Shown in pieces: positions 125 to 60,868 of a DNA stretch of 64,000 nucleotides. The position numbers were made by a program, and so were the translations under genes. The stretch's first letter is position 1; the number at the start of each line of letters is the position of its first letter. The stretch is from Candidatus Hermodarchaeota archaeon (GTDB lineage Archaea > Asgardarchaeota > Thorarchaeia > Thorarchaeales > Thorarchaeaceae). Under the pieces are notes generated by a model that was not told the DNA's origin, did no database searches, and worked only from the letters and a program-made list of their open reading frames with translations. The stretch spans positions 1 to 64,000 of the forward strand of contig JBHLLF010000009.1 in NCBI GenBank assembly GCA_048885865.1, in the 5' to 3' direction.

Positions 125-1576
125 TCACATCCATAGCAGCCGTGTGGTCATCATTCTGAGGGGCCGGAGTTCAAATCTCGCCCGATCCGCCATCTCTATC
201 CTGATTGGTTGGTCTAATCTTTCCATTATTTGATTCCCGGCTTCCACAGACTCCACAGATAGAAATTGCTGTCCGGGGGCAGCGTATTCCACAACTCCTC
301 CAACCATTGTCATTAGTACCTCTAAGTCAGCAAGAGTGTTCTCGGGAACTGTCAGCGGATTGTCTGAAAGAATTACCAAGTCTGCGAATTTACCCACCTT
401 AATGTTCCCTTTTACGTCCTCTTGAAACGTGCCATAAGCTGCATCAATTGTAATGAGCCGCAGAGCTTGTTCTACACTTAGAGTCTGGTTTAACATCCAA
501 TCTGTGGGTGTAAGCCCTAGCCCGCCAACCCTTGTGACGGCACTAGAGACCGCATACATTGCTGACCTCTCTATTGTCCCCAGAAGCCAAGGAAAGTCAG
601 TACTGCCTTGGGAAGGTATCCCAGCTTCAAGAATGTCCCTCCATCTACCTGCGAGGTGGGAATAATTCTGCAGAGCTTGAAATGATACTGCCTCCTTCCA
701 GTCTGAATTCATCCACGTGAGTTGGAAAGAAGCGATAATTCCTAGGTCTGCCAACCTCTGTATCTGATCATCTCTTAGTAGGACGAGGTGCTCAATCCGG
801 TGACGGTACTGTTGGTTTGATTGCCCGTCCAAAGCCAATTCCAGAGCGTTTAGTACAATGTCTGTGGCATTATCGACCACACTGTGAATAGCAATCTGGA
901 AACCTAAATCATGAGCTTCCTGTACTAATGAGTTCAATTCAGTCTGAGAGAAGTAGTGAAGCCAACTAGGATAATACCAGCTGTCCATAAAGATCTTCAC
1001 TCCCGCTATCCTGAGCTTTGAACTGTATTCATGCCCCGGTTGATAGGCCTGATACCAATCTCCGAACCTCTCAAACTGCCAGCTCAATGGAAGATAAGCA
1101 TTAACACGAACGCGAAGATTGTCCTGTTGATCCAGAGTTATGAGTCCATCCAGGCGGTCCTGATTTACAAAGAGTTCAGAAATACTGGTCCATCCAGAGC
1201 TAAGCACCGATTCAATTACTTCATCTGCCGTTGATTGATTCACATAACTACGGTCACCTATATGATGAGAATGAGCATCGATAAAACCCGGTAGAAGCGT
1301 CCTTCCCTCAAGGTCGATGAATTGGGTGCTTGGTCCTGCCATCGCGAGGATGGCATTCTCATCGCCGATAGCAACAATATACTCACCTTTGATGGCAAGT
1401 GCCTCGATTTGCACTGGGGATTGCTCCATAGTCAGTATTTCGCCGTTATGTATGATGATGTCAGGCGAATCGCTTGTTTCATTCCAGAATCCTTGTGAAA
1501 TGAGATACAGGACAGAAGCCAGCAAAAGGGCCAGTATTACAAACGAAGCTAAGAGAAGTCCGCGTCTATTCATCAA
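125..1576 (-). CDS. Amidohydrolase family 3 (YtcJ-like) with N-terminal membrane anchor
   Basis: LLPGFIDAHSH, GFQIAIH, HRIEH, GSTDFP and G.IKVGKFADLVILS motifs; hydrophobic N-terminus. Confidence 0.9.
   Translation of the reverse strand: MMNRRGLLLASFVILALLLASVLYLISQGFWNETSDSPDIIIHNGEILTMEQSPVQIEALAIKGEYIVAIGDENAILAMAGPSTQFIDLEGRTLLPGFIDAHSHHIGDRSYVNQSTADEVIESVLSSGWTSISELFVNQDRLDGLITLDQQDNLRVRVNAYLPLSWQFERFGDWYQAYQPGHEYSSKLRIAGVKIFMDSWYYPSWLHYFSQTELNSLVQEAHDLGFQIAIHSVVDNATDIVLNALELALDGQSNQQYRHRIEHLVLLRDDQIQRLADLGIIASFQLTWMNSDWKEAVSFQALQNYSHLAGRWRDILEAGIPSQGSTDFPWLLGTIERSAMYAVSSAVTRVGGLGLTPTDWMLNQTLSVEQALRLITIDAAYGTFQEDVKGNIKVGKFADLVILSDNPLTVPENTLADLEVLMTMVGGVVEYAAPGQQFLSVESVEAGNQIMERLDQPIRIEMADRARFELRPLRMMTTRLLWM
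170..192 (+). repeat. Orphan tRNA 3'-end copy (T-loop to CCA)
   Basis: TTCAAATCTCGCCCGATCCGCCA = T-loop, T-stem 3' strand, acceptor 3' strand, G73, CCA; no matching 5' half folds upstream. Confidence 0.7.
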
Positions 1577-1680
1577 GACATCTCCTTGTTCCTAACCAAT
1601 TGGAATTCTACTGTTGGAAGCCGGTAAATAATCATCCGTTCAGGCGTTCTTTAGGCCCCTAGGACTGAAATCGCCGCAAC

Positions 1681-1703
1681 TTCAGACTGCATCCGGTCCA
1701 CCA
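1681..1703 (+). repeat. Degenerate tRNA 3'-end copy
   Basis: TTCAGACTGCATCCGGTCCACCA, 15/23 identical to 170-192 in the same register, mostly transitions, followed by a pyrimidine tract. Confidence 0.5.
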
Positions 1704-1724
1704 TTTCTCCGAGCGAGCTAGAGA

Positions 1725-2870
1725 TTATCCTAAGATTTCTTCCATTCTATCAATTGCTTCCACGATTCTATCTTCAGGTTGAAGAACTGTCATTCTGAAG
1801 AAGTTCTCATATCGTTGATTAAAGACATCACCTGGTGCTACTACGACATTCTTCTTTGAGAGTAATTCCATCGTGAACTCGCGACCGGTCATGTCCACCT
1901 CAATTTCCGGAAACACGTAGAACGTCCCGTCAGGACGGTAGAATGAAACAGGCAAGCGCTCAAGTTCCTTGCAGGCAGTAGAGAGACGGTCTTCGACTAT
2001 TTTCGAGTAGGAATTGGCTTCATCGACGCAGTCGAGGGCGGCCATTCCAGCATATTGGATAAACTCAGGTATTGAGATGACGCTCTGTCTCTGTCTTTTC
2101 ACCATATTTGATGCGTTTGGCACATCTGTCACAACATATCCAAGTCGATACCCTGTCATCCCGAACTCCTTGGAGAATGAGCCAACATAGGTCTGTTTAC
2201 AATCAGGAAACTCCAGAATACTTGTGAATTCGGTGCCGTAATTGAGAGTGGAATAGACCTCATCACTCAACACATAGATGCCATTGTCTGAGGCAACTTC
2301 AGCAATCTGTTTCATGGTATCTCGATTGAGGGTCTTCCCTACCGGATTGTTCGGTGTTATCGTTATGATCATCTTTGTCTTGTTGTTGATAGCCTCTACC
2401 AGTCTGTCGATATCAGGGTCCCATTGCGCCTCAAGGTCTGTGAAAAGGAGAACTGGATGTGCGCCAACATCACGTACTGAGAAGAGGTATGGAGGGTATA
2501 CAGGTGCTATCACAACGACCTCATCGCCTGGGCCTACCAAATGATCTATGCACAGATTGATTGCTTGTCGTGCACCAACCGTGATGATCACATTGTCCTC
2601 GCTCAAATCACGATTGAATTTTCCACCAACAACTGATGCGATCTTTTCCCTGAATTCTGGAATACCCGCTGAATCGGTATACTTGGTCTTGTTGTTATTG
2701 AGTGCCTCGATGGTAGCGTCAATCACCCTCTTAGGAGGACCAAAGTCAGGGTCCCCAATTGCAAGATGAATGAGATCTTTGCCTTCCCTCTCTAGTTTCC
2801 GCGCAGTTTGGAATATCTCGAACAGCGTTCTGTCTTCTGCCATTTCAGCACATCCTTCACACTTGAGCAC
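1725..2870 (-). CDS. PLP-dependent aminotransferase class I/II (aspartate aminotransferase-like)
   Basis: GDPDF, PNNPVG, SDEVY, SFSKEFGMTGYRLGY (PLP lysine). Confidence 0.95.
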   Translation of the reverse strand: MLKCEGCAEMAEDRTLFEIFQTARKLEREGKDLIHLAIGDPDFGPPKRVIDATIEALNNNKTKYTDSAGIPEFREKIASVVGGKFNRDLSEDNVIITVGARQAINLCIDHLVGPGDEVVVIAPVYPPYLFSVRDVGAHPVLLFTDLEAQWDPDIDRLVEAINNKTKMIITITPNNPVGKTLNRDTMKQIAEVASDNGIYVLSDEVYSTLNYGTEFTSILEFPDCKQTYVGSFSKEFGMTGYRLGYVVTDVPNASNMVKRQRQSVISIPEFIQYAGMAALDCVDEANSYSKIVEDRLSTACKELERLPVSFYRPDGTFYVFPEIEVDMTGREFTMELLSKKNVVVAPGDVFNQRYENFFRMTVLQPEDRIVEAIDRMEEILG

Positions 2871-3052
2871 ATAGCCCCAAGATTTTTACATTTGAAGTGT
2901 GCTAGAGCTGGATTGTCTCTGCAAATATGTTTCCATCCAAATAGGAATCATTGCTTCCGAAGAGAGAATAGGAAAGACTCACCATGCCCACCAGCCATCA
3001 CATCAAGTCTATATACAGGCCATACTGTCATTCCGACGTGTGAGTTGATTCA

Positions 3053-4180
3053 ATGGTAGACCAGGAAACCTGGGAGCGTACTGTGCTTCAAAAACTTGAA
3101 TTGCCAAATGGATTATTGGCGTCCAGCCGAATTATGCGGGCTGCAACTTGGATGGGACAGGCAGAAGGAGATGGAAAATGTGGTGACACAATCATTGAAA
3201 CTTACGGAAAGATTAGGGCAGGTATCATCGTAACTGGCTTTCAATATGTCATGAATGAAGGACAGGCTATTCGGCATATGATTTCGAATAGCAAGCCCGA
3301 AGATGTTGCAGGTCTAAAGCGCCTGGCCGCTGTGATTCACTCTACAGGGGCTCTAGCAGCAGCTCAATTGGTCCATTGTGGAAGCAGAAGCTGGCCCAAA
3401 CTGACTGGTAATGATGTAGTATTTGGGCCCAGCGATATGGAGGTCCCTCAGCAGAAGGGAGAGGCTGTTCAGGTAAAGGCGATGACAGTAGACCATGTTG
3501 AAAGAACCACTCAGGCCTATGCAGATGCGGCGGCGCGTGCAGTTGATGCAGGATTTGATCTTATTGAACTCCACGGAGCCCATCATTATGGACTGTGGCA
3601 ATTCTTTGACCCATCATACAATAAACGTCCTGTGAATGATCCATACACAGGATCGACAATTGAGGGTCGCTCAAAAGCAATGGTCGATGCTGTACGAGCT
3701 GTCAGAGAGATGGTGGATGTTCCAATCCAAGTCAAGGTGGATTCAAGCTCAGAGTATGTCAGACCAGGAGAAGTAGGTGAGCTAACAAAGAAGCTCGCTG
3801 AAGCAGGCGCATACTGTGTGATATTCAGCGGCCCCAATTCAATGCAAGACCCAAAGGATTCTGGAGAGGCGTATTTCTTGGATTATGCAATGGAGATCCG
3901 TTCGATTGCAAAAGGTAGTGGTCTTCTATTCGGACTAGTAGGTGGGATAAGGTCTCCAGAGACCGTTGTCAGATTGCTATCAGGAAATGGAAATCCCACA
4001 GATGCGTTTGATGTGATTCAGCTTAGTCGTCCGTTGATTAGTGAACCCGCGTTATTGGAACGTTGGACTGAAGAAGCAAAGAGTGGAAAACAGGAACCGG
4101 CTCGGTGTATATCCTGCAACAGTTGTTTCCGAGCAGGATTTAGGGACAAGGTGAGGTGTGTTCAATTCGAAGATCAATAA
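3053..4180 (+). CDS. NADH:flavin oxidoreductase (Old Yellow Enzyme family)
   Basis: AQLVHCG, AGFDLIELHGAHHY, VGGIRS, SRPLISEP, C-terminal CISCNSC. Confidence 0.92.
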   Translation: MVDQETWERTVLQKLELPNGLLASSRIMRAATWMGQAEGDGKCGDTIIETYGKIRAGIIVTGFQYVMNEGQAIRHMISNSKPEDVAGLKRLAAVIHSTGALAAAQLVHCGSRSWPKLTGNDVVFGPSDMEVPQQKGEAVQVKAMTVDHVERTTQAYADAAARAVDAGFDLIELHGAHHYGLWQFFDPSYNKRPVNDPYTGSTIEGRSKAMVDAVRAVREMVDVPIQVKVDSSSEYVRPGEVGELTKKLAEAGAYCVIFSGPNSMQDPKDSGEAYFLDYAMEIRSIAKGSGLLFGLVGGIRSPETVVRLLSGNGNPTDAFDVIQLSRPLISEPALLERWTEEAKSGKQEPARCISCNSCFRAGFRDKVRCVQFEDQ

Positions 4181-4329
4181 TGTCGAACGCGATGACAACT
4201 CTTTGCCGTCTTATGCTGAGGCAGAGTGCAGGCATCTATGACCGGACCCATTATCCGGATATCGACATTTACTAACGCTTAATACCAATGTGTCTGCATA
4301 ATCTCTGCAATAGTAAAGGAGGACCAACA

Positions 4330-4491
4330 ATGGAAAAAGGTCATGACCAGCATATGTGTGTATTCTCTCGACATAACGATGTTGCGCAAATCGTAGAACG
4401 CGTCAAGGGTGCAAAGTTCATGTGTCAGAACTGTGGCAGAGTTGCTAACAAAAAGGAGTATCTCTGCAAACCCATAGCAGTCGAAGTATAA
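4330..4491 (+). CDS. Small Cys/His zinc-binding protein
   Basis: AAGGAGG SD before ATG 4330; HxxHxC...CQNCGR...LCKP pattern. Confidence 0.75.
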   Translation: MEKGHDQHMCVFSRHNDVAQIVERVKGAKFMCQNCGRVANKKEYLCKPIAVEV

Positions 4492-5934: not shown

Positions 5935-6468
5935 TTATCTCTGAAGTGCTGCGGCTACAGGCAAATCAATCTGCAGAACTGAACCCTCATAGTGCTGAAT
6001 CCGAGCGCCTGCGCGTTCGGCAATTGTGATAATCGCGACGTTGTTTGATAGGACGTGCGCTCTCAGGTGCTTAATCCCGTTTTCGTCTGCAAGCTCTGCA
6101 AGTGCCTGCAATAGCTGAGTTCCAAGTCCTCTGTTCTGGAATTCATCAATGACCGTCACTGCCGCTTCTGCAACATCCGGCTCGCCCTCACATCGGACAT
6201 ACCTAGCGATGCCAATCCCGACCATGGGATCCTGACTAGTGTCGAATGCACAGATGGCCAGATGATGATCCTGGTCTATCTTCTTGAGTTCCTTGAGCTG
6301 AGCATCAGGTAGCTTGCACAAGCTCGTCATGAATCGGAGGTAGAAGGAACTATCTGAGATCTTCTTCAGTCCTTCACGCACTTCATTAATGTCGTCAGGC
6401 TCGTACATCCTAATGAGTACGGGTGTTCCATCCTTTAGTTGCGATTCACGACGAAATTCGATTGTCAA
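5935..6468 (-). CDS. GNAT acetyltransferase
   Basis: LKDGTPVLIR, ARYVR, AEAAVTVIDEFQNRGLGT acetyl-CoA motif. Confidence 0.9.
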   Translation of the reverse strand: MTIEFRRESQLKDGTPVLIRMYEPDDINEVREGLKKISDSSFYLRFMTSLCKLPDAQLKELKKIDQDHHLAICAFDTSQDPMVGIGIARYVRCEGEPDVAEAAVTVIDEFQNRGLGTQLLQALAELADENGIKHLRAHVLSNNVAIITIAERAGARIQHYEGSVLQIDLPVAAALQR

Positions 6469-6525: not shown

Positions 6526-7614
6526 CTAGTTAGAATTTTGATAATCCACGCCAAGTCCAGGACCAACGGGACGGAGGATTGTTCCTTGGTCTTCTACTAA
6601 TCCCTGTATAGGATCATCCGCCAGCTCCTGTGTGCCTATTTCATGAGGATGGTTGAAGTTAGAACCCGAGAGGACAAGATGGACTGCAGCAGACACTCCA
6701 ATCTGAGTTTCCCATGGACTGATCACAACGCACTCAATCCCATGCTCCTCAGCTAGCGATGCGATTTGTCTTGCCCTGTAAATCCCGCCGTGTTTTATGA
6801 GTTTGAGCCCGAAGAAGTCCACCGCTTCGTGTTCAATAAGTGATTCTGCGTCTTTGATTGTGTATAGCGACTCATCGGCCATGATGGGTGTGCCACTTTC
6901 TTTTCGAATTTGGCCAAGGCCATCATGATTGTCTGCAGCTACGGGCTGTTCGAGGTATTCTAAGTCGATGTTCTCAGTTTTACGTAGTACCTTTAGCGCT
7001 GTTTCAACTGAATATCCTGTGTTGGCGTCTGCACGAATTCTAACGGAATCTCCTACAACATCTCTCACTATCTTCAGGGTTTCAATGTCTTGGGCTGGCT
7101 CGATTCCAACTTTGATCTTGATAGCTCTGGCCCCATGCTCTACTTCCTGCAAAGCTGTCTTCGCAATCTCAGCGGGATTTCCAATCCCTAGCACCTTTGC
7201 CAACTCCACATGGTCACGGGAAAGACCGCCGAGAATCTGGTAGACGGGAACGCCCCTCAACTTTCCTGCGAGATCATGAAGAGCAATGTCAATTCCGGCT
7301 CTCGCTGTGCCTCCCGCCAGAGGATATTCATCCAGGTCCTCATTGAGATTGTCAAAATCAAACGGATCTTTCCCAGTCATACTAGGCCCCAAGTCCTGAT
7401 CGATGACACGTTTGATATGATTGAAGTCATCGTCAGCCGTAAAGGGGAGGGGACAAGCCTCACCAATGCCTGTAATTCCATTGTCGGCAGTGATCCAAAC
7501 CATCACGTGATGGCGAGTGGTGGGTTCGCTTCCATAGGTGGTAACGAATTCACCGGCGAGATGCGTCTGTACTAATCGAGTTCTAAATGATGCTATTGAT
7601 ACCATATTCCTCAC
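6526..7614 (-). CDS. Enolase superfamily, dipeptide epimerase / muconate lactonizing enzyme subgroup
   Basis: GIGEA, DIALHDL, KIKVG, DANTGY, EQP, ADES, KLIKHGG. Confidence 0.92.
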   Translation of the reverse strand: MRNMVSIASFRTRLVQTHLAGEFVTTYGSEPTTRHHVMVWITADNGITGIGEACPLPFTADDDFNHIKRVIDQDLGPSMTGKDPFDFDNLNEDLDEYPLAGGTARAGIDIALHDLAGKLRGVPVYQILGGLSRDHVELAKVLGIGNPAEIAKTALQEVEHGARAIKIKVGIEPAQDIETLKIVRDVVGDSVRIRADANTGYSVETALKVLRKTENIDLEYLEQPVAADNHDGLGQIRKESGTPIMADESLYTIKDAESLIEHEAVDFFGLKLIKHGGIYRARQIASLAEEHGIECVVISPWETQIGVSAAVHLVLSGSNFNHPHEIGTQELADDPIQGLVEDQGTILRPVGPGLGVDYQNSN

Positions 7615-8147: not shown

Positions 8148-8726
8148 ATGCATAAACTCCTCCTAGAAATTCCGACTCTCCTGGAATCGGAAACCCTGAT
8201 TGTCAGAAAATTCGAGAGAGGCGACGGAAAAGGTCTCCTAGCCTTGTTGGAACGCAACAGCAACAGAGAGTTTCTCAGAGAGGCCGCTGATGAAGTAGAT
8301 GACATCAAGACGCTAGATGATGCTGAAATTGATATCAGAGAACATGCAGCAGAGTGGGAATCCAGAAAGAGGTTCGTAATGGGCATTTGGCTGAAGGCTA
8401 CAGGCGAATATGTAGGACAGATTTGGATTGAACCAAAGAGGTGGGAAGTACCATCTTTTGAGCTAGGCTATTACATTGATCAGGGCTGTGCTCGAAAGGG
8501 GATAGCAACCGAAGCAGCCAAACGGGCATTGAGATTCCTATTCGAAGACTTGAAGGCTCACAAAGTGATAATCATAACTCGCGATACAAATGAGAGAAGT
8601 TGGAAACTGGCAGAGAGATTGGGATTCAAGAGGGAGGGGCATCATCGAGAGTGCAATATAAGGGATGGAAAGCGTTGGGGTCTCTTCTATTATGGAATGT
8701 TGAGATCTGAGTTCAAGAGTGCTTAA
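8148..8726 (+). CDS. GNAT acetyltransferase, RimJ/RimL family
   Basis: FELGYY, RKGIATEA, NERSWKLAERLGFKREG; start moved to ATG 8148. Confidence 0.9.
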   Translation: MHKLLLEIPTLLESETLIVRKFERGDGKGLLALLERNSNREFLREAADEVDDIKTLDDAEIDIREHAAEWESRKRFVMGIWLKATGEYVGQIWIEPKRWEVPSFELGYYIDQGCARKGIATEAAKRALRFLFEDLKAHKVIIITRDTNERSWKLAERLGFKREGHHRECNIRDGKRWGLFYYGMLRSEFKSA

Positions 8727-8751
8727 GTGATAGGTTGGAGAGGGCTGAGAT

Positions 8752-9387
8752 ATGGACGATGAAATCCGTGAAGAACTCACTCGCCTTGTAATGGAAATGG
8801 GGCAAGACCTTGAGGATCCGGAGAGTTATCTGAAGCTCGGTTGGAAACTATATGACGAGTCACGCCTCGAAGATGCAACGCAAGCCTATGAAATAGCTTT
8901 AGAACTCAATCCGTCCTATGCAGATGCATGGCGCGAGTTGGGAGCCACGTTATTCATCCTGGGTCACAATGAAGAGGCCGAGTCTGCGATGACTACTGGA
9001 CTGAAACACGACTCAAATGATGCCGACGCATGGTACAATCTAGGATGCCTCTATAATGCAAATGAGCGAGAAGAGGAAGCGGAGAAGGCTTTTAGGACTG
9101 CACTCGAGTATCAACCGGAGGGCCCGGACATATGGTGCAATCTGGGTATCCTATTGGCTTCAATTGGCCGTACTGATGAAGCCGAAACAGCTCTCAAGAA
9201 GGCGGTCGAGATTAGACCTGAGCATTTAGTGGCTTGGCTCAATCTTGTCAAACTACTCTATTCTGAAAATCGAGAGGAGGAAGCCGAGAATGCATATGAT
9301 GCAGCGGTTTCTCATGTCCCTGGATTTGAGAACTTCGTGGAGTCACTGAAGGATTTTGCAGACGACAAGCTCGACGAGGCGAGTTGA
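8752..9387 (+). CDS. TPR repeat protein
   Basis: About five TPR units (AWxxLG...A...A.EL.P). Confidence 0.9.
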   Translation: MDDEIREELTRLVMEMGQDLEDPESYLKLGWKLYDESRLEDATQAYEIALELNPSYADAWRELGATLFILGHNEEAESAMTTGLKHDSNDADAWYNLGCLYNANEREEEAEKAFRTALEYQPEGPDIWCNLGILLASIGRTDEAETALKKAVEIRPEHLVAWLNLVKLLYSENREEEAENAYDAAVSHVPGFENFVESLKDFADDKLDEAS

Positions 9388-9959
9388 GATTGAGCTTCGA
9401 GAACTCCTTTGAAACGCCAGTACAGAAAATAGAACTTGAGCAGCTCCCTCGAGAAGGACTGATAATTGACATTGGTGGCGGTGGAGAGGGTCTAGTCTCC
9501 CGAATTGAAACCTCCAGAGTCTGCGCGGTGGACTTCAATTTGAATAAGATTAGAGAGGCCATGATCTATGGTCAGATGTCACAGTGGATACTCTCTGACG
9601 CAAGGATGCTGCCAGTAAAGGATGAGGGGTTCAATGTAGCCACTCTTTGGTTCTCTCTCGGATATATTCAAGATTGGGACTCAAAGAGACAAGTATTAGC
9701 TGAAGCAGCAAGAGCGATGAAGCAATCTGGACATATCTCAATCATTGGTGCGAGAATCACATGCTCTGACTCAAGATTCGTCATAAGAACGCTTTTTCAT
9801 TTTCCCGATGGATCGATTTCCAAGATGAGCTATGGTATGGCTGGCATGCAGAGGCAGGATGCAGAATCTGTTGTCAATTTGATTCAAGAAACGGGCTTCA
9901 GCAATATCACATGTGAAGACAATGGACATTGGTTTCGTGTTAATGCACAGAAACAATAG
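9384..9959 (+). CDS. Class I SAM-dependent methyltransferase
   Basis: IIDIGGGGEG motif I; DARMLP. Confidence 0.85.
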   Translation: MRLSFENSFETPVQKIELEQLPREGLIIDIGGGGEGLVSRIETSRVCAVDFNLNKIREAMIYGQMSQWILSDARMLPVKDEGFNVATLWFSLGYIQDWDSKRQVLAEAARAMKQSGHISIIGARITCSDSRFVIRTLFHFPDGSISKMSYGMAGMQRQDAESVVNLIQETGFSNITCEDNGHWFRVNAQKQ

Positions 9960-18669: not shown

Positions 18670-18778
18670 GGGCCGGTGGTCTAGCCCGGCTATTGTATCA
18701 TTCCTCGGAATGGTATAGTCGATTGATACCGCATTGACAGTGCGGTGGTCACGTGTTCAAATCACGTCCGGCCCACCA
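18670..18778 (+). tRNA. tRNA-Val(GAC) with 31-nt D-arm intron (21/22; 18693-18723)
   Basis: GGGCCGG/CCGGCCC acceptor, CCGCA-TTGACAG-TGCGG arm, ACGTG-TTCAAAT-CACGT; central helix CGGC/GTCG with 3-nt bulges. Confidence 0.93.
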
Positions 18779-26160: not shown

Positions 26161-26268
26161 GCGCTCGTTGTCTAGGGGCTATGATGGATCCCTGCCAATG
26201 CGCGGGGGTTTATCCCTCGGAACCGTAGAACGGATCCGGCCCGGGTTCGAATCCCGGCGAGCGCACCA
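26161..26268 (+). tRNA. tRNA-Gly(GCC) with canonical 33-nt intron (37/38; 26198-26230)
   Basis: GCGCTCG/CGAGCGC acceptor, GATCC/GGATC stem, BHB CTGC/GTAG, CCGGG-TTCGAAT-CCCGG. Confidence 0.95.
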
Positions 26269-26286: not shown

Positions 26287-27369
26287 TCATCTAACCAGAC
26301 TCTCAAAAAGCCGAGCTGACCTCTTATCCTGAGAATCAGTTTCAGTTGCTTGTTTCAATGCTTCCCGTGCTTCATCAATGCGGTTCTGCTTTAGAAGGGC
26401 AATTCCAAGATCACACCAAGCAGCTGTGAGTGACGGGTCAATTCCAATAGCCGATCTTAGTGCAGTTTCCGCTTCCTCGTATTTGCTTTGAGCGAGCAAG
26501 CATTTACCCAATGTGTGGGGGAAGTCAGCATATTCAGGGGACTCTTCAGCCAGTTTCCTGTACTTAGCTTCAGCCTGGGGCATGCTTCCCAAGCCACTCA
26601 ATGAGATAGTGAACAACTGTCTGGCTCTTGGGTCAATTCGACTCAGTTCTGCTCGTTTAGTCGAGAGATCTATTAACCCAATCTCTTCAAGTTTCGCCCC
26701 AAGTCTATCGATTGCAAAGTCAGTAAGTGGCTCAATGCTTATTGCTTTCTCATATGCCTCGAGGGCTTCATCCAACATGCCTTGCATGAGCAGGACAACT
26801 CCTAGTTTGATCCACACTACGTAGCTCCGGCTGTTGAATTGAAGGGCTTTCTGATAACTATGGATAGCTTCTTCGTATTTCTGGTCGCGTTGTTGAAAAT
26901 CGGCCAACTTCTCCCACTGAAATGAATCATCTGGATGGGTTCTCACGCCTTCTTCATAGGCTTCCTCTGCTGATACTTCAAGACCCAGCTCAGCAGATAG
27001 CTCAGCAATGTGGTTCCATGACGATGTGTCGTCAGGCTTTCTAGAAACTGCTTCGCGAAAGCATTCTATTGCCTCAATCTTGAGGCCTTCTGACATCAAG
27101 AAGAAACCTAGCTGCCTCAGAGCGTTGGGACTCGCTTCATGAGTCCGAGCAGCCTCTCTTAGCATTGTCTTGGCAGCCTCTCTTTTACCATGATTGTAAA
27201 GGAATATTGCGTAGGAAGTCAAACCCGCCTCGAATTCGGGATAAGTAGATGTCAATTCTATATAGGTGTCCTCAGCTGCTCTATGATCTCCTTTCTGTTC
27301 AAACTCAATGGATTTGGTCAAGAGCCCAAATGCTCTTTCATGTCGTATCCAATTCCGAATCCTACGCAA
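26287..27369 (-). CDS. TPR repeat protein
   Basis: Eight or more TPR-like units. Confidence 0.88.
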   Translation of the reverse strand: MRRIRNWIRHERAFGLLTKSIEFEQKGDHRAAEDTYIELTSTYPEFEAGLTSYAIFLYNHGKREAAKTMLREAARTHEASPNALRQLGFFLMSEGLKIEAIECFREAVSRKPDDTSSWNHIAELSAELGLEVSAEEAYEEGVRTHPDDSFQWEKLADFQQRDQKYEEAIHSYQKALQFNSRSYVVWIKLGVVLLMQGMLDEALEAYEKAISIEPLTDFAIDRLGAKLEEIGLIDLSTKRAELSRIDPRARQLFTISLSGLGSMPQAEAKYRKLAEESPEYADFPHTLGKCLLAQSKYEEAETALRSAIGIDPSLTAAWCDLGIALLKQNRIDEAREALKQATETDSQDKRSARLFESLVR

Positions 27370-27417: not shown

Positions 27418-27482
27418 GTTAGCGGGTTATCATGCAGCTCTTCGAAGCTATGACCAGGGTTCGAATCCCGGCGAACGTACCA
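27418..27482 (+). pseudogene. Degenerate tRNA-Gly-like copy; direct repeat of the tRNA-Gly(GCC) 3' end
   Basis: 27460-27482 matches 26246-26268 at 21/23; decayed anticodon and D-arm-like sequence upstream; no 5' acceptor strand. Confidence 0.8.
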
Positions 27483-27586
27483 TTTCTTGCATTCCTAGAA
27501 GCATCGATACGATATGTTCATCTTAGAGTGAATGCCTGTTGTGCAGCAATAATAAGCCTTCAAAATCCATGGGGGACCGAAGTGAG

Positions 27587-28057
27587 ATGTCTTTTCGATA
27601 TACTGTTAGAGTAGGATATATCCTGCTTGTTCTAACCCTACTAACACCCTTCAGCGCAATGATCCAGGCAATAACTGAAGATAATACCACGATTGCGCTA
27701 CTTGCCCCCTTGTGGCAGTACATATGGCACAGCACATTGCCAGTTCATTTTGCATTCTCTCCATTCGGTTTGCTATACTTTCCATACTATGGTTTGAGTG
27801 TGTATATCTCGTGGCTAGCTTACAATACAGCCCGCAAGCAGAATATTGAAAGAAAACAGTATGCATGGAGATTAGTCATCATAATAGCTCTTCAGATTGC
27901 AGTGATACTGCTAATTCCGCCCTTTAGTGGGGACCCTCGGCCCGTGAATATTCCACTGCCTATAATGGGCGTACTGGGACTTCTTCTTACAAACTACACT
28001 GTGAGGAAACTAACTAGTCCATGGGAGGATCAAGTGGTCTTTTCTGAATCAGAATAG
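27587..28057 (+). CDS. Four-TM membrane protein
   Basis: Hydrophobic segments; C-terminal SPW motif. Confidence 0.7.
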   Translation: MSFRYTVRVGYILLVLTLLTPFSAMIQAITEDNTTIALLAPLWQYIWHSTLPVHFAFSPFGLLYFPYYGLSVYISWLAYNTARKQNIERKQYAWRLVIIIALQIAVILLIPPFSGDPRPVNIPLPIMGVLGLLLTNYTVRKLTSPWEDQVVFSESE

Positions 28058-28076: not shown

Positions 28077-28099
28077 TTTGAATCTCTGCGAGCGCATCA
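28077..28099 (+). repeat. Second repeat of the tRNA-Gly(GCC) 3' end
   Basis: TTTGAATCTCTGCGAGCGCATCA vs TTCGAATCCCGGCGAGCGCACCA (19/23). Confidence 0.75.
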
Positions 28100-28151: not shown

Positions 28152-28586
28152 ATGCATGCTATGAATAACCATCTTCTCCATATGGCTGCTCGTGTGTGGC
28201 TGATTGAAACGCTGTTCTCCATATTCAATTTCTTCGTTCTCATGAATCTCGTCTATGAACCGGCGTGGGGTGAATTGGTAGCACACCAGATAGGGATGTC
28301 GACCAGGATTGTGGTTATTGTGATTCTCGCATATATGCTACTTCGATATGTCCAGGAATACGAAACGAGAGACCTTGTTCATGTAGGGTTGCTCTGGGTC
28401 GGACTGGAGCTATTGTTCGAATGGGGTGGCAGTCTATTGGTTGGGCGATCTGTAGAAGAAATCCTCATTGGATGGAACATCTTTGCGGGCTACATTTGGC
28501 CCTACGTACTACTCACCTACCTTCTGTCCAATCTTGTCATAGGTGTAGCTTTCCATCCAGGGAAGAGAACAACTGGTCAGAGATAA
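28152..28586 (+). CDS. Conserved four-TM membrane protein
   Basis: GELVAHQI, GLLWVGLELLFEW, WNIFAGYIWP. Confidence 0.75.
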   Translation: MHAMNNHLLHMAARVWLIETLFSIFNFFVLMNLVYEPAWGELVAHQIGMSTRIVVIVILAYMLLRYVQEYETRDLVHVGLLWVGLELLFEWGGSLLVGRSVEEILIGWNIFAGYIWPYVLLTYLLSNLVIGVAFHPGKRTTGQR

Positions 28587-32895: not shown

Positions 32896-33054
32896 AATTG
32901 ACCAATTCTGCGATATTATAGGTATTGAAAAGCGATTCCGTTCAGGACCTTCTCTCTATTGAGCTAGTCCAAGAGCTTCTCTTTGACGGTTGCCTTGTGT
33001 ATGACTCAACTCTTAAGATGGACTTTGATTTTGACGAGTCGAGAGAATTCAATC

Positions 33055-36585: not shown

Positions 36586-36660
36586 GCGGCCATAGTCTAG
36601 GGGTTATGATCCGAGCCTTCCAAGCTCGTAACCCGGGTTCGAATCCCGGTGGCCGCACCA
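36586..36660 (+). tRNA. tRNA-Gly(TCC), intronless
   Basis: GCGGCCA/TGGCCGC acceptor, CGAGC-CTTCCAA-GCTCG, canonical T-arm, CCA. Confidence 0.96.
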
Positions 36661-51646: not shown

Positions 51647-51695
51647 TCTCGCCCAACCAATTCTCTTTTAAGAATATGAAAATGTGAAACAGTTA

Positions 51696-51804
51696 GGGCC
51701 CGTTGCCTAGTCTGGTTTCAGTGAGCTTTTCGCCTCTGAAAGGCACATAGGGCGCTAGCCTTCTAAGTTAGAGGTCGACGGTTCAAATCCGTCCGGGCCC
51801 GCCA
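51696..51804 (+). tRNA. tRNA-Arg(TCT) with 31-nt D-loop intron (19/20; 51716-51746)
   Basis: GGGCCCG/CGGGCCC acceptor, CTAGC-CTTCTAA-GTTAG; strict BHB: CCTA/TAGG, GTCT/AGGC, TTCAG/CTGAA. Confidence 0.94.
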
Positions 51805-54601: not shown

Positions 54602-54678
54602 GCCTCGGTGGCCAAGCGGTTTAAGGCGACTGCTTCGTAAGCAGTAGATCGGGGGTTCAAATCCCCCCCGGGGCTCCA
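54602..54678 (+). tRNA. tRNA-Thr(CGT), intronless
   Basis: GCCTCGG/CCGGGGC acceptor, ACTGC-TTCGTAA-GCAGT, U73, CCA. Confidence 0.95.
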
Positions 54679-55847: not shown

Positions 55848-55873
55848 ATATCAAGATAATAGAGGTAAAACAG

Positions 55874-57232: not shown

Positions 57233-57254
57233 ATACCAAATGCGTCATGTAGAA

Positions 57255-57300
57255 CCCGGGGAGTGGCAGGCCAAACAACACTCCCCTGGGCCCCCTTTTC
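57255..57300 (+). terminator. Hairpin plus T-tract after the MFS gene
   Basis: GGGGAGTG/CACTCCCC stem followed by TTTT. Confidence 0.5.
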
Positions 57301-57407
57301 TAGCGTTATTCAGTGACCAATGATGATTTGCATGATTCGTGAAGAGCATCCAGTGAGTCGGCGTTTACCTTAAGGATTATAGTGTGCGAGCTGATTATCT
57401 ATAGCAT

Positions 57408-57752
57408 GTGAACGACATGACCAAAGCTTCCTATCCAGATATCATCAAGAAACTCCCGAAAGTGAAACACTCAATGGATGGCGTCGAGGGCTGGCTCGCT
57501 CAGGGGAAGGATTTCCAGATAGCATTCTTTGAGATTCAACCCACAGCAAAGGTGCCACCACACACCCACGGAGCTCAGTTCGGAGTCGTAATGGAGGGCG
57601 AAATTACCCTAACAATAGGCGATGACACTCAAGTCTATGGCAAGGGTGACACCTATATCATTCCTGCAGGCGTCATTCACCATGCAGAGTGCAAGTCTGT
57701 TGTCCTTGTAATGGACTATTTTGATGATGCAGATAGATATGAAACCGAATAG
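57408..57752 (+). CDS. Cupin domain protein
   Basis: PPHTH.AQ.G...IPAGVIH. Confidence 0.88.
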   Translation: MNDMTKASYPDIIKKLPKVKHSMDGVEGWLAQGKDFQIAFFEIQPTAKVPPHTHGAQFGVVMEGEITLTIGDDTQVYGKGDTYIIPAGVIHHAECKSVVLVMDYFDDADRYETE

Positions 57753-57756
57753 ATTC

Positions 57757-58011
57757 CTACTCCCTCCAAGCCTCATTCGAAAACTCGATTGCATGCAACA
57801 CCTTCTGACCGAACTCGTTTGAATCGCATTCAAAAGTGTACATCACAAATCCATCATAAGCAAAGAAGTGCATTCTTCGCACATGATAGATGATCTTCGG
57901 CTGTGCAACTTGCACAAGCTCAAGGAACTCGTCCCGCTTAAACTTCACACGGTAAGAACTTGTATGTTGAGCGGCTGCCGCCGCAGCGGCTGCTCCACCT
58001 GCAAATGCCAT
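57757..58011 (-). CDS. Hypothetical protein with Ala-rich N-terminus
   Basis: AGGTG SD; plausible 84-aa ORF. Confidence 0.7.
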   Translation of the reverse strand: MAFAGGAAAAAAAAQHTSSYRVKFKRDEFLELVQVAQPKIIYHVRRMHFFAYDGFVMYTFECDSNEFGQKVLHAIEFSNEAWRE

Positions 58012-58124
58012 CTTATTGCACCTAATGGTATTCTGAGTTTCTTGATATCTAAACTTGGCTCTTGAAGCAGCTTATTGCTGTGAATTACACAGTGCTTATC
58101 TGATAGGGACCATACTGCCAAGCT

Positions 58125-58892
58125 ATGGCTCATCCAGGAGTAATGCGCGATTCTGAGGGACGAGTCCCTCATGTATACCTGAGAGAAGGTGATGTCGCGG
58201 AATATGTCTTGCTGCCTGGCCCTCCAGAGAGAGCAAGAGTGACAGCCTCAATGTTTGACAGTTCCAAAGAATTGGGATTCCATAGGGAATACCTCAGCTT
58301 CACCGGGGAGTATCAGGGCATTGAGGTCTCAGTGGTGTCCACGGGAATGGGAGTCTTCTCTGCGGTCGTCGCAGTTGAAGAACTCGCCGCCATTGGAGCT
58401 AATACATTCATTAGAATTGGGTCATGTGCGACGTATCAAGAGGAGATTCAACTTGGGGATAACATCATAGCTACTGGGTGTATCAGGGACGAAGGGTGTA
58501 CACTGGAATATGCACCATTGGCATTCCCGGCAATACCTGACCTATCTGTGATGACAGCACTCATAGATTCAGCTAAGGAAGTCGGGGCCACGTATCATAC
58601 GGGAGTTGTGCGAACCTGTGAGAACTTTTACTTGCGCGACCGGTCACCAGTCCTCAATGCACAATATGCGAAACTGGGTGCTGTTGCTCTTGATATGGAG
58701 CTCTCTGCTATATTGATGGCTTCGATTGATTTGGGAAAAAGAGCTGGTGGCATTCTCACTGTGGGATCCAACTTGGTCACGACTGAGAACCGGTATAAGG
58801 GGGACCGAATCACTGAGTTTGACGCCGGCGAGAAGAATATGATAAGAATAGCCTTAGAAACGGTAAGAAAATTGCACTCTCAAGACCACTGA
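58125..58892 (+). CDS. Nucleoside (uridine-type) phosphorylase
   Basis: LPGPPER, HREY, STGMG, IRIGSC, RDEG, DME. Confidence 0.92.
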   Translation: MAHPGVMRDSEGRVPHVYLREGDVAEYVLLPGPPERARVTASMFDSSKELGFHREYLSFTGEYQGIEVSVVSTGMGVFSAVVAVEELAAIGANTFIRIGSCATYQEEIQLGDNIIATGCIRDEGCTLEYAPLAFPAIPDLSVMTALIDSAKEVGATYHTGVVRTCENFYLRDRSPVLNAQYAKLGAVALDMELSAILMASIDLGKRAGGILTVGSNLVTTENRYKGDRITEFDAGEKNMIRIALETVRKLHSQDH

Positions 58893-59227
58893 TCCACCTC
58901 TAGACCTGTGCAGCTGCCCACAGCTTTATTCGTATTCAGAAGAACTCAACCGGACCAAAGAGGCGAAAATAGAAATGAAATACATTAGAAAACGAAAGGC
59001 TAGGAAAAAGCACTGGCAGTCACTCCCCCCATTCGAGTGGTATGCAGCAGCAGGACGATGAGTACTCATTCACTCATCAATCTAGTTTCCCGAGGTCTTA
59101 ATGAATTGACGCAGTTTCACTGACCTCGGTCCATACTTCTTCTCGAAAATTGGCATCCTTGCTACGGGCCTCTCCGACATCTTTAAGTGATTTGAAAATG
59201 CATCACCAAATCGCGAACACAAACGAT

Positions 59228-59347
59228 GCGGAGGTTGCCAAGCCTGGCCAAAGGCGCTAGGTTGAGGGCCTAGTTCAGTAGTGATTCGCGAGACTCCGGG
59301 TAATTCGTAGACCCGGGGCGCGTATTCAAATCTCGCCCTCCGCACCA
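59228..59347 (+). tRNA. tRNA-Leu(GAG) with 32-nt T-arm intron (53/54; 59293-59324)
   Basis: GCGGAGG/CCTCCGC acceptor, CTAGG-TTGAGGG-CCTAG, long variable arm, GCGAG|TTCAAAT CTCGC; central helix CGCG/CGCG with AGA and TAT bulges. Confidence 0.93.
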
Positions 59348-59379
59348 CCTTCTTCTTGATTCATTGAAATAGATTATTA

Positions 59380-59607
59380 CTATTCTTTGTCATCAATTCC
59401 AGGTAGATGACCCCCATAAAACCCGCCCATGCCCATGCCTTTAACCCCTCCCAAGTTTGAAGCTTGTGGTGCCGTATCTGAATACCTCGCTTGTGCAGAA
59501 GGAACACTAGTTTGCGAAGACTTGTTCCTTCTATCTTCTGGATAAAGCAAGAGAATGAGTGCGATAATGATTACACCAGCGATAAGCCCAGTAAACCACA
59601 GATTCAA
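59380..59607 (-). CDS. Small single-TM protein
   Basis: N-terminal TM, Gly-rich tail; fills the space between tRNA-Leu and its repeat. Confidence 0.6.
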   Translation of the reverse strand: MNLWFTGLIAGVIIIALILLLYPEDRRNKSSQTSVPSAQARYSDTAPQASNLGGVKGMGMGGFYGGHLPGIDDKE

Positions 59608-59670
59608 CTCAGTTAGCTTCCGTATTGATTTTGGTTTGAGTTGAGATAAACATTACCACGAACGAGATAT

Positions 59671-59693
59671 TTCAAATCTCACCCTCCGCACCA
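59671..59693 (+). repeat. Direct repeat of the tRNA-Leu 3' end
   Basis: TTCAAATCTCACCCTCCGCACCA vs 59325-59347 (22/23). Confidence 0.9.
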
Positions 59694-59772
59694 CTTTTCC
59701 TATTCTCTTTGAGGACTAGCTATCTTCTTATTATCGGAATCAAACCGGAGTGTGTTTGAAAGGTGATCTCAT

Positions 59773-60276
59773 TTGAATGAAGGGAATCACAAATTCAATG
59801 ACAAACTTGTAATGACATATGCTCAATACTTCAAGGCAATGACAAGCCGGGCTGCAAGCATAATCAGGGCATTTGAATCCGCCTTTGGAAGGGAAGAAGT
59901 CCATCAAGTTCTCAAGGATTGGTCAGAGAACGCGGCGCGTAAAATGGCCCCAGACTCAATAGCTGATTTTCAGAAGTTCAAAAACTACTGGAAGACTACA
60001 TTAGAGTCTGAGAATTGGTCAAAGATTCTGACCTGCGAGTTTCTTGAAGAGTCCAATAGGAAGTTGGCGTGCAAGTATTCCGAATGCCTATGGGCGGAAA
60101 CAATGAAGGATATGAATACTGAAGATATTGGTTACATTCTATTTTGCCACCCGGATTTTGAAATGGCAAAAGCAATGCATCCGAATCTAAGATTGGAGCG
60201 GTCTCGTACGCTTATGGAAGGGCATGAATTCTGTGATCACACATTCTATTGGGATGAGAAACCAACACCTGATTAG
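59773..60276 (+). CDS. L-2-amino-thiazoline-4-carboxylate hydrolase-like protein
   Basis: ECLWAE, GY..FCHPD, LERSRTLMEGHEFCD. Confidence 0.85.
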   Translation: MNEGNHKFNDKLVMTYAQYFKAMTSRAASIIRAFESAFGREEVHQVLKDWSENAARKMAPDSIADFQKFKNYWKTTLESENWSKILTCEFLEESNRKLACKYSECLWAETMKDMNTEDIGYILFCHPDFEMAKAMHPNLRLERSRTLMEGHEFCDHTFYWDEKPTPD

Positions 60277-60286
60277 TGGCTGTGTG

Positions 60287-60309
60287 CTTATATTACGCCC
60301 TGCGAACCA
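60287..60309 (+). repeat. Degenerate second repeat of the tRNA-Leu 3' end
   Basis: CTTATATTACGCCCTGCGAACCA, 16/23 ungapped, followed by a pyrimidine tract. Confidence 0.55.
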
Positions 60310-60328
60310 TCTGCTTCTAGGTGAGTTT

Positions 60329-60868
60329 TCACCTCACAAGCAGGATTGCGTATCTATTCATTGTCTGATCATAGTCAGATAGAACCTCTATCGGATAACC
60401 CACAGCCCTCGCTGTTGAAAAGACATCTACAGCCATGGCTTCTGGTGGAGGTCTGGAAAGCCTCTTCTGCTTGCAGTCTTCTCTAGCGCTAACACATTCA
60501 TCGCACAACGAACAGTTGTCTGCAGGGAGGATGAAAGCCTTGACTTCTCCTGAAAGAAACACCTCTCGCTCTAGCTTGAGAAGCTTCAGGTTTATTTCCT
60601 TCATTATTTCATGACGATCATCAGGATTGTCAAGTTCTATAGATAGGTGAAACAAGGCAATGTCATTATATTCGTCAAATAGCTCCCTGCACTCGGATAC
60701 TGATGGCGTGTTAGGAGGACATGCAGCGCATTGTCCATAGCTGGAGCATCCCCATGTGCATTTCATACGCACCCATTGGGAAACAACGACTTCCTTGGGA
60801 CCAATCCATTTGTAGTCATCGAATCCATGTTTCACAAACAGAGTTTCAAGATTCTTCAGACCGCTCAT
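60329..60868 (-). CDS. DUF2284 metal-binding protein
   Basis: WVRMKC.WGC..YG....CPP, CSLCDEC, RPPPEAMAVDV. Confidence 0.9.
   Translation of the reverse strand: MSGLKNLETLFVKHGFDDYKWIGPKEVVVSQWVRMKCTWGCSSYGQCAACPPNTPSVSECRELFDEYNDIALFHLSIELDNPDDRHEIMKEINLKLLKLEREVFLSGEVKAFILPADNCSLCDECVSAREDCKQKRLSRPPPEAMAVDVFSTARAVGYPIEVLSDYDQTMNRYAILLVR

Follow-up and report, generated by a model that had tools for sequence, protein, structure and literature searches.

The locus examined here raises the question of why the last 23 nt of certain tRNA genes recur behind those genes in a Thorarchaeota chromosome, and how the genes between the copies came to lie there. The window, the whole 64,000-nt stretch of DNA that we analysed, contains three additive rows of accessory genes: one behind tRNA-Gly(GCC), one behind tRNA-Leu(GAG), and a tRNA-Ala-type array cut by the contig end. 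A unit combines the pyrimidine-rich trailer of the tRNA with one accessory gene, which may point either way, and a co-oriented 23-nt copy of the tRNA end; the cargo is ordinary accessory genes. A sequence-only reading had described such repeats behind both tRNAs and at the window start, and these hold up, as does their description as direct repeats, given that all window copies lie on the tRNA strand. Its weaker repeats behind a tRNA-Phe have no counterpart, as the window holds no tRNA-Phe. The claim of exactly one gene per unit is accurate for the five window units (0.35–1.5 kb, with a single ORF between successive copies in each) but not for contig C54, where units hold one to three genes.

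Two tRNA-Ala-type copies lie near the window start: a free-standing copy running from T-loop to CCA (170–192, plus strand), which matches this genome's tRNA-Ala(CGC) at 21/23 positions, and a degenerate copy (1681–1703, plus strand), which agrees with it at 17/23, including all of the last 11 nt. No tRNA stands beside them, since window position 1 is where the contig starts. The cassette gene of this array encodes an amidohydrolase (Amidohydro_3; 125–1576, minus strand), and its final ~20 codons read through the copy at 170–192, a variant that relatives keep beside the orthologous gene. A paralogous unit on contig C54 (70% nt identity) also has copies on its flanks, and amidohydrolase orthologs occur in tRNA-Ala arrays at 15 Thorarchaeota loci.

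Array 1 is anchored on tRNA-Gly(GCC) (26161–26268, plus strand), which has a 33-nt anticodon-loop intron and an encoded CCA. Its first cassette gene (26287–27369, minus strand) encodes a 360-aa TPR-repeat protein, present in relative G015 (92.6% nt identity) and missing at the same locus in G002 and G008, and is followed by a first 3'-end copy (27460–27482, plus strand; 21/23) that retains 4/5 T-stem pairs upstream and has a pyrimidine tract after it. The second gene (27539–28057, plus strand), encoding a 172-aa membrane protein without a family, precedes a second copy (28077–28099, plus strand; 19/23, and 20/23 in its G015 ortholog). The third unit encodes a 144-aa membrane protein (28152–28586, plus strand); its closing copy (17/23) is found in G015, while here the corresponding ~70 bp are missing.

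Array 2 is anchored on tRNA-Leu(GAG) (59228–59347, plus strand), which was identified by eye; ARAGORN misses it because of a 32-nt insert (59293–59324) just before the T-loop, located exactly at the T-stem/T-loop boundary that forms the left edge of the 23-nt repeat. Behind it follow the gene of a small 75-aa membrane protein (TM75; 59380–59607, minus strand), found in G015 and with a peptidase S9 gene in its place in G002; a first copy (59671–59693, plus strand; 22/23); the gene of a 167-aa ATC-hydrolase-like protein (59773–60276, plus strand), present in G015 and G002 and missing from G010 and G008; and a second copy (60287–60309, plus strand; 16/23, chance level if taken alone). This last copy is real because its G002 ortholog has the last 11 nt exact. 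The 3' end of the G008 tRNA itself aligns at 60287–60309, with the DUF2284 unit directly after it. That unit, the third one here (60310–61323), comprises the DUF2284 gene (60329–60868, minus strand) and a 106-aa ORF; it has no closing copy and stops just before 61324, the start of sequence conserved in 5/5 genomes. The other window tRNAs, namely Val(GAC) (18670–18778), Gly(TCC) (36586–36660), Arg(TCT) (51695–51804), and Thr(CGT) (54602–54678), have no cognate copies above chance.

Comparison with relatives (80–95% nt identity) showed that units are gained and lost as blocks edged by tRNA-end copies: at both the Gly and Leu loci, relatives differ by whole copy-bounded units, which are therefore gained and lost as cassettes, as had been proposed. 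At the Gly locus, two units not seen in this genome are present in G015 (93% nt identity), one beside the tRNA and one internal, G002 carries different cargo, and G008 has ~0.8 kb only. Behind tRNA-Leu, the order is TM75, ATC-hydrolase-like, and DUF2284 in this genome (G000), a new unit followed by the same three in G015, peptidase S9 and ATC-hydrolase-like in G002, thioesterase in G010, and DUF2284 in G008. The newest units of G015 adjoin the tRNA. In the tRNA-Ala arrays of 15 genomes, many cassettes are unique, but a few common ones follow one another in the same relative order. The median length over 112 units is 1.4 kb, and up to 10 units stand in a row. The predicted fall in identity with distance from the tRNA is seen in the window, with 21/23 then 19/23 for Gly and 22/23 then 16/23 for Leu, but neither in the C54 array (in order, 23, 23, 22, 22, 21, 19, 23, 20, 22, and 21 of 23) nor in the G015 Gly array (23, 17, about 14, 18, 20, and 17 of 23).

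The pattern extends well beyond the window. A scan downstream of all tRNAs in this genome recovered eight cognate copies with at least 19/23 identity, within 10 kb of 7/29 tRNAs, versus 0.00 with shuffled queries, and none at this threshold on the opposite strand. The copies are found throughout the family, where the tRNA-Ala-type 23-mer (up to three mismatches, true tRNA genes counted too) occurs 4–18 times per genome versus 0–5 times outside. Local repeats within 10 kb were direct in 359 cases and inverted in 12, and 18 local repeat families with at least three copies included 3' ends of protein-coding genes. Gain and loss of this kind takes place at many tRNAs and protein-coding 3' ends, across the genome and the whole family, and the specificity for tRNAs assumed by the sequence-only reading falls away, as 3' ends of protein-coding genes also fence arrays in this genome. 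Across 57 compared copies, conservation rises sharply at T54, a preferred breakpoint, and a 10-nt pyrimidine tract follows. About 45% of copies reach left of T54 into the T-stem, and one Tyr copy extends to the anticodon stem, which means that no single fixed cut defines the boundary.

What moves these units? None of them encodes an enzyme for its own mobility, and any catalyst therefore acts in trans. This part of the earlier proposal of a trans-acting recombinase stands, but no recombinase of a known type was found: this genome has no match to PF00589, PF16795, PF00239, or PF01867, and neither a tyrosine or serine recombinase, Cas1, nor inverted ends were detected in it. Across the family, tyrosine recombinases are absent from 25/41 genomes, including some that are 97–99% complete, and sporadic in the other 16. 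The best candidate catalyst is predicted to be a nuclease rather than a recombinase.

We tentatively favour insertion at the tRNA 3' end through repeated rounds of break and repair, with a protein family that we call X as the likeliest trigger, as a variant of additive tRNA islands and yeast WHO arrays. The tRNA gene would be broken at or near its T-loop or 3' end, and repair would copy from incoming or sister DNA in which a different neighbour follows the same tRNA end. This would restore the tRNA and push the old 3' end and older units downstream, and units would be lost through recombination between copies. The break would most likely be made by X, acting in trans as a tRNA-end-specific LAGLIDADG homing endonuclease family, and short inserts at the same boundary, now read as tRNA introns, may be repair scars tolerated by splicing. 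Counting against break-and-repair, tyrosine integrases that target the T-loop are said, after Williams in 2002, to leave a T-loop-to-CCA identity block likewise.

We met X at a G014 locus syntenic with the window's Gly array, where the tRNA is broken before the T-arm. Multi-copy in 35/61 family genomes, X often lies at contig ends or contains internal stops, and its hosts are Thorarchaeota wherever the organism is named. No Pfam family corresponds to it. At 5/12 loci (tRNA-Ala, Phe, and Ser), its stop codon lies 0–9 nt from the CCA of a complete tRNA; X is also found at tRNA-Gly(GCC) loci, and its tree groups by tRNA, with a Gly clade (three genera) and an Ala clade (two genera), each with 100/100 support. 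The structure model (pLDDT 89) matches PI-PfuI (Z 18.8), I-Tsp061I (Z 17.4), and I-DmoI (Z 16.2, rmsd 2.4 Å), and its two LAGLIDADG helices end in an invariant D177 and in D/E, respectively. The model points to a LAGLIDADG homing-endonuclease fold, which is shared with the non-nuclease WhiA, and DNA cutting is a prediction from it. A family HMM did not find X in this genome (87% complete) at E values up to 10. The 7–9 kb past X at the five tail-to-tail loci contained no tRNA-end copy of 16/23 or better that had been displaced, and X itself therefore did not leave the expected scar there, and no X remnants occur in the arrays of relatives save the intact gene at the G014 locus.

The closest precedent for such a nuclease is the WHO elements at FBA1 in Torulaspora and Lachancea yeasts, where a LAGLIDADG-type nuclease gene also lies directly behind a conserved gene, each homing event replaces the FBA1 3' end, and old ends pile up downstream as an array (PMC7282813). 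WHO clusters consist of WHO genes and pseudogenes (PMC7282813), whereas the arrays here hold unrelated cargo without nuclease remnants, the nuclease family is found in relatives only, the targets are tRNA genes, and the alignment of X, which covered its endonuclease domain, gave no evidence of an intein-like part.

Possible, if doubtful, is a classical additive island, in which integrase-less cassettes, comparable to cis-mobilisable elements, depend on tyrosine integrases that sporadic plasmids or viruses supply in trans, with crossover in the T-loop and the tRNA 3' end in attP. An identity block from T-loop to CCA with a step at T54 is compatible with tRNA integration sites of the T-loop class, the patchy distribution of tyrosine recombinases would be expected, and unit edges remain marked by copies diverged to 17/23. 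However, besides the lack of PF00589 and PF16795 matches here and of a tyrosine recombinase in 25/41 family genomes, the closed genome G004 has a single match, which is specific to that genome and 0.65 Mb away from the G004 array. Eight integrase loci in relatives have neither a tRNA nor a tRNA-end copy within ~10 kb, and more than 10 distinct anchor sequences in one genome would require many specificities. Tandem elements split by partial tRNAs are known (10.1101/2020.12.28.424599; PMC4898812; PMC6563490), and cassettes beside a tRNA separated by partial tRNA repeats have been described in bacteria (PMC4898812; 10.1101/2020.12.28.424599). The additive flexible genomic islands of Alteromonas share with our arrays a tRNA-side hot spot, a cassette number and kind that vary between close relatives, and a partial tRNA repeat downstream of inserted cassettes (PMC4898812). 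Those islands are bacterial, mostly multi-gene, and attributed to site-directed recombination (PMC4898812), in contrast to the mostly one-gene units of an Asgard archaeon, with no integrase found and ends of protein-coding genes used too.

Unlikely, in our view, is a process with no dedicated enzyme, in which homologous recombination or gene conversion with related-strain DNA uses tRNA-end copies as anchors, circular or ends-in integration adding units and inter-repeat deletion removing them. This would suit the many anchors of very unequal length (23 to ~245 nt), the conserved order of common cassettes, and the lineage-specific T-stem variants that copies share with their own tRNA. In G015, a diverged allele (82% identity versus 94–95% in the flanks) spans the whole tRNA-Leu region, beginning ~70 nt upstream and including the new unit, and resembles an imported tract. 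However, the first joining of a new gene to an anchor-end copy is left unexplained, 23 nt, often mismatched, is very short for strand exchange, and a sharp preferred left edge at T54 is unexpected from random crossovers.

Very unlikely is the alternative offered by the sequence-only reading, serial decay of full-size integrase-bearing islands or proviruses that each left one cargo gene and an att scar. The degenerate distal copies of the window (19/23, 16/23, and none at 61324) resemble old scars, and such remnants are described in Prochlorococcus tycheposon islands, where serial integration at one tRNA displaces older elements inward, partial tRNA copies lie between elements, and older ones are scattered (10.1101/2020.12.28.424599). 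Tycheposons encode a tyrosine or serine recombinase as well as replication genes of their own, and they leave integrase fragments (10.1101/2020.12.28.424599), whereas we found no integrase fragment in the window, as had been noted, in the genome, or at ~30 array loci of relatives, and no viral families among the unknown ORFs. The short median unit length also argues against decay, as do the position of the eight integrase loci of relatives away from tRNAs, an ancient C54 cassette flanked by perfect 23/23 copies and G015-unique units of 0.3–0.8 kb, one of which has a 22/23 flanking copy and is thus recent yet already minimal. Chance matches or tRNA pseudogene debris with no part in gene gain are barely conceivable: by our own estimate, a window should yield about one 16/23 match at random, but this explanation is ruled out by the shuffled queries, a reversed pattern without matches across 41 genomes, the co-orientation of every copy, and insertions and deletions between relatives that stop at copies.

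Rows of mostly single, unrelated accessory genes with a short recurring site and variable content also recall integron cassette arrays. Unlike integrons, the arrays have no IntI or attC hairpin, genes lie in either orientation, and the site that recurs is part of the adjacent gene; with copies lacking a hairpin and an irregular gradient, the suggested integron- or CRISPR-like age gradient is not borne out. In Caldiarchaeum subterraneum, a tRNA-Thr fragment lies 1–2 kb from the intact gene with an insert in between, and the same allele has a new intron (PMC3293823). The tRNA-Gly(GCC) allele of G015 presents the same picture, with a new 30-nt D-loop insert and, at that locus, a 1.3-kb unit at whose flank the first 12 nt of the tRNA are repeated. 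The 1.8-kb Caldiarchaeum insert is recombinase-encoding and multi-copy (PMC3293823), whereas the orphan ORF encoded by that of G015 is single-copy. The proposed repair scars find support in these G015 inserts and in the 32-nt T-loop insert of tRNA-Leu, which varies between close relatives: G000, G002, and G010 have it, and G015 and G008 do not.

We found rows of displaced tRNA 3' ends in the first 64 kb of contig C9, part of a 3.58-Mb assembly (G000) of 117 contigs that is 87% complete. Behind tRNA-Gly(GCC) (26161-26268), the anchor of the Gly array, the last 23 nt of the tRNA recur at 27460 (21/23 identical) and 28077 (19/23), and behind tRNA-Leu(GAG) (59228-59347), the anchor of the Leu array, at 59671 (22/23) and 60287 (16/23), while two tRNA-Ala-type copies lie at the window start (170 and 1681). 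These positions and identities bear out the sequence-only reading, whose additional tRNA-Phe anchor falls away, as the window contains no tRNA-Phe; no cognate copies were found for tRNA-Val, Gly(TCC), Arg(TCT) and Thr of the window. The signature of an element, with the tRNA 3' end repeated in direct orientation on either side of the unit, is present, and the five window units hold one ORF apiece, encoding an amidohydrolase, a TPR protein, two membrane proteins and an ATC-hydrolase-like protein, with cassette genes on both strands. The claim that a single gene separates successive copies stands for all five window units, but not for contig C54 of the same genome, where units between ten co-oriented tRNA-Ala-type copies within 15.5 kb contain 1-3 genes. 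Across the genome, cognate copies of at least 19/23 occurred within 10 kb downstream of 7 of 29 tRNAs (shuffled queries, 0.00), and zero were found on the opposite strand. Every window tRNA encodes its CCA, and several have non-canonical introns; tRNA-Val(GAC) (18670-18778) and tRNA-Arg(TCT) (51695-51804), with introns in the D-arm or D-loop, were misread or missed by ARAGORN in default mode. The amidohydrolase ORF runs ~20 codons beyond its conserved end (window 125-192), through the antisense of the tRNA-like copy, and the alignment to its orthologs stops at residue ~462 of 483.

Comparison with relatives at the Gly and Leu loci showed that units come and go as blocks, with whole-unit differences and a varying number and kind of cassettes. 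At the Gly locus, relative G015 (93% identical) has two additional units, one of 0.3 kb (62-aa ORF) directly behind the tRNA and one of 0.75 kb (213-aa ORF) separating the TPR cassette from the membrane-protein cassette, and it keeps a closing copy lost from the window; G002 carries TetR and flavodoxin genes in place of the window cargo, and G008 has just ~0.8 kb ahead of the conserved downstream gene. At the Leu locus, the tRNA is followed in G000 by genes for a 75-aa small membrane protein, the ATC-hydrolase-like protein and a DUF2284 protein, in G015 by a new unit and the same three genes, in G002 by a peptidase S9 gene and the ATC-hydrolase-like gene, in G010 by a thioesterase gene, and in G008 by the DUF2284 gene; beyond these units, all five genomes share one conserved sequence, starting at window position 61324. 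A unit is made up of a trailer, a gene and the next copy, and the trailer behind the window's tRNA is the one behind the second copy in G015. In the tRNA-Ala arrays of 15 genomes, the majority of units were unique, and the few common ones kept their relative order. Cassette GC was slightly low (0.40-0.46, against 0.46-0.475 in the flanks).

A profile of 57 tRNA-Ala-type copies placed the jump in conservation at the first T-loop base, with the 5' T-stem arm also kept in ~45% of copies. The 10-nt pyrimidine tract after the CCA was conserved in composition (74-95% pyrimidine) and not in sequence. No conserved upstream partner arm, as in an attC-like imperfect inverted repeat, was found in this profile, and terminal inverted repeats of units were not in excess over shuffles. 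The 32-nt insert of tRNA-Leu(GAG) (window 59293-59324), between T-stem and T-loop (position 53/54), coincides exactly with the left edge of the repeat and is polymorphic in close relatives: G000, G002 and G010 have it, G015 and G008 do not. In G015 (8447-9900 of locus L102, G015:C40), tRNA-Gly(GCC) has a 30-nt D-loop insert that is absent in the window's allele, and is preceded by a 1.3-kb unit that encodes an orphan protein of 342 aa and has the tRNA's first 12 nt in direct repeat on both sides. The same picture has been reported for the tRNA-Thr of Caldiarchaeum (PMC3293823).

Displaced 3' ends extended beyond the window and beyond tRNAs. In G000, downstream copies were also found for tRNA-Tyr, the tRNA at C23:2108, one tRNA on contig C5 and tRNA-Ala(TGC), and a genome self-comparison gave 359 direct versus 12 inverted local repeats and 18 repeat families with at least three copies, several of which consist of the 3' end plus terminator of a protein-coding gene, those for an acyl-CoA dehydrogenase and uS19 among them. 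The tRNA-Ala-type 23-mer, counted with up to 3 mismatches and with true tRNA genes included, had 4-18 occurrences in each of the 24 family genomes searched and 0-5 per genome in other families of the phylum, while a reversed 23-mer gave 0 matches. In the closed chromosome G004 (CP070658.1), five copies are packed into 4 kb, and the 3.6 kb upstream of them contain no full tRNA.

A candidate trigger emerged from relative G014, whose locus is syntenic with the window Gly array. There, the tRNA ends just short of the T-arm and is followed by a Schlafen/AlbA_2 gene and an ORF of at least 543 aa, which belongs to a family of hypothetical proteins (X) comprising 35 clusters without a Pfam domain and, where the source organism is named, from Thorarchaeota. 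The G014 contig (C150) ends inside this gene. Of 61 family genomes, 35 have X, in as many as 7 copies, frequently at contig ends or with internal stops; in G000 (87% complete), X was not found, even with the family HMM. At 5 of the 12 loci, X converges on a complete tRNA (Phe, Ser or, three times, Ala), with 0-9 nt between its stop codon and the CCA; the Phe-adjacent X is that of G011 (L130:2254-3864), and an Ala-type X lies at L137:7091-8941. In G049 and G051 X starts 110-300 nt past a Gly(GCC)-type end, alongside a four-copy Gly array in G051. X proteins group by adjoining tRNA, with a Gly clade from three genera and an Ala clade from two (support 100/100 for both); given that the relatives are not independent, this clustering is no more than suggestive. 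With the X-family HMM, no X remnants were detected in the relatives' array loci except for the intact gene at the G014 locus (L106).

The structural model of X (pLDDT 89.1, pTM 0.87) has a double LAGLIDADG core (alpha-beta-beta-alpha-beta-beta-alpha), with a Foldseek probability of 1.00 for this fold, and resembles PI-PfuI (Z 18.8), I-Tsp061I (Z 17.4) and I-DmoI (Z 16.2, rmsd 2.4 A over 168 residues). An invariant D177 ends helix 160-177 (first motif), and a QEG or QDG consensus, with Glu or Asp, ends helix 260-274 (second motif); these acidic helix-end residues are probably catalytic. By sequence, X gave sub-threshold matches alone to LAGLIDADG_3 (E 4.5e-4 and 0.041), the X profile had no match among PDB chain sequences, and the non-catalytic WhiA has the same fold. 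X is a candidate tRNA-end nuclease with predicted activity.

We tentatively favor a break-and-repair origin of the arrays, for which yeast WHO elements offer a precedent (PMC7282813). An X-type nuclease would break a conserved gene at its 3' end, and repair would replace this end and shift the old one downstream; repeated cycles would leave cassette rows behind tRNAs and other conserved genes, and non-canonical tRNA introns at repeat boundaries could be scars of break repair. Such a process would account for the many anchors and the missing integrases, for the preferred edge and the intron scars, and also for where X lies and how it groups in the tree. Counted against it are the failure to find X in G000, the lack of displaced copies beyond X and of X remnants in arrays, and the variable left edges. 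The broader proposal, that Thorarchaeota-specific tRNA-end LAGLIDADG nucleases drive general integrase-free single-gene capture in Asgard archaea and also seed tRNA introns, is a tentative one.

A tyrosine integrase acting in trans, though doubtful, stays a serious rival, given that the arrays have an identity block from T-loop to CCA, the textbook signature of this enzyme. The orphan tyrosine recombinase that the sequence-only reading proposed to look for elsewhere in the genome did not turn up: Pfam searches of G000 gave zero matches to PF00589 (tyrosine integrase), PF16795 (SSV-type), PF00239 (serine recombinase) and PF01867 (Cas1). Of 41 family genomes, 25 also lack PF00589, including several with a completeness of 97-99%, so a conserved XerA-type recombinase seems missing. 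Among relatives with integrases, those of G018, G011, G021 and G061 were rejected as catalysts, as their loci are not at tRNAs, and the single integrase-like gene of closed G004 has no homolog in 25 other genomes. By Pfam domains of cassette ORFs, no integrase gene lay inside any element examined, and the cargo consisted of common accessory genes or orphans. An integrase-like tblastn match at the G014 locus proved to be the Schlafen/AlbA_2 protein. Homologous recombination alone, an unlikely origin, explains less than either break-and-repair or an integrase, as does the decay of full islands, which is very unlikely given that 9 family integrases, used as tblastn queries on ~30 array loci and on the genome, had no credible match and hence revealed no integrase remnant.

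Other candidates were also set aside. Genuine TnpB copies in G015, G010 and G002 lie between aIF5B and NDK, and their downstream region matches no anchor; the G015 gene is complete (HTH, OrfB_IS605 and TNB domains; 8169-9455 of locus L117, G015:C58), and its end has no match upstream of the NDK gene of G000 (contig C67). No selfish gene recurs in the arrays, where merely common accessory families (SBP, LVIVD, DUF4760) reappear at 21-37% identity. The 342-aa ORF upstream of tRNA-Gly in G015 is an orphan present in one copy, and 10 ORFs of unassigned family had no matches in PHROGs.

Among known systems, tRNA-adjacent cassettes separated by partial tRNA repeats are on record under the name of additive flexible genomic islands (PMC4898812) and as islands built by tycheposons (10.1101/2020.12.28.424599). 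The arrays share with additive islands the site beside a tRNA, the varying cassettes and the partial tRNA repeat after them, and with self-integrating tRNA elements the direct repeats of the tRNA 3' end, but not the integrase or its remnant inside the element. The comparison with integrons drawn from the sequence alone did not hold, as there is no IntI beside the array (no PF00589 match in G000 or 25 of 41 family genomes) and no attC-type arm, and genes lie on both strands, whereas integrons have attC imperfect inverted repeats and co-oriented cassettes. Casposons, with Cas1, terminal inverted repeats and a 14-15 bp target duplication, differ in that G000 has no PF01867 match and units have no inverted ends above shuffles. 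WHO-like homing arrays share the row of displaced target-gene 3' ends, and their nuclease directly behind the target has its parallel in relatives (at 5 of 12 loci, with 0-9 nt to the CCA, and at the Gly(GCC) loci of G014, G049 and G051), but not in G000, where X was not found; WHO clusters are also interspersed with nuclease genes and pseudogenes, which Thorarchaeota arrays lack except for the intact X at the G014 locus. The literature searched yielded no paper on such arrays in Thorarchaeota. New relative to known islands are the Asgard host, the one-gene scale and unit number, the apparent integrase absence, the use of other gene ends as anchors, and the tRNA-end-associated LAGLIDADG family.

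No known organisms are more closely related to eukaryotes than Asgard archaea. Their genomes are large, with many genes acquired piecemeal (PMC13247210), and the rows described here reveal the places at which a Thorarchaeota chromosome gains and loses single accessory genes without a recognizable integrase. If X were the trigger, the yeast WHO/HO system would have a prokaryotic counterpart, X would form a new class of tRNA-gene-specific nucleases, and a long-standing idea could be tested directly, namely that the introns of archaeal tRNAs originate where mobile elements attack and guard against such attack; the tRNA-Leu alleles with and without intron would be natural test substrates.

Smaller repeat loci were also observed. 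On contig C88 of G000 (L003), three 3'-end copies terminating in GGCCCGCCA lie at 6391, 6670 and 7592, one of them inverted, with no full cognate tRNA in the assembly; contig C119 of G002 has the same pair of ends, and there the inverted copy has an X-family gene at a distance of ~640 nt. In closed G004, locus L133 (G004:C1:418000-432000) holds two kinds of direct-repeat array, with units of 79 nt and 130 nt in three copies apiece, and an X-family fragment (ORF 6655-7512) lies ~0.9 kb away. Finally, an extra 0.7-kb unit encoding a zf-PARP-domain protein is present at 18194-18880 of L102 (G015:C40); the corresponding window site (32980-33000) is empty, and the location is distant from any tRNA.
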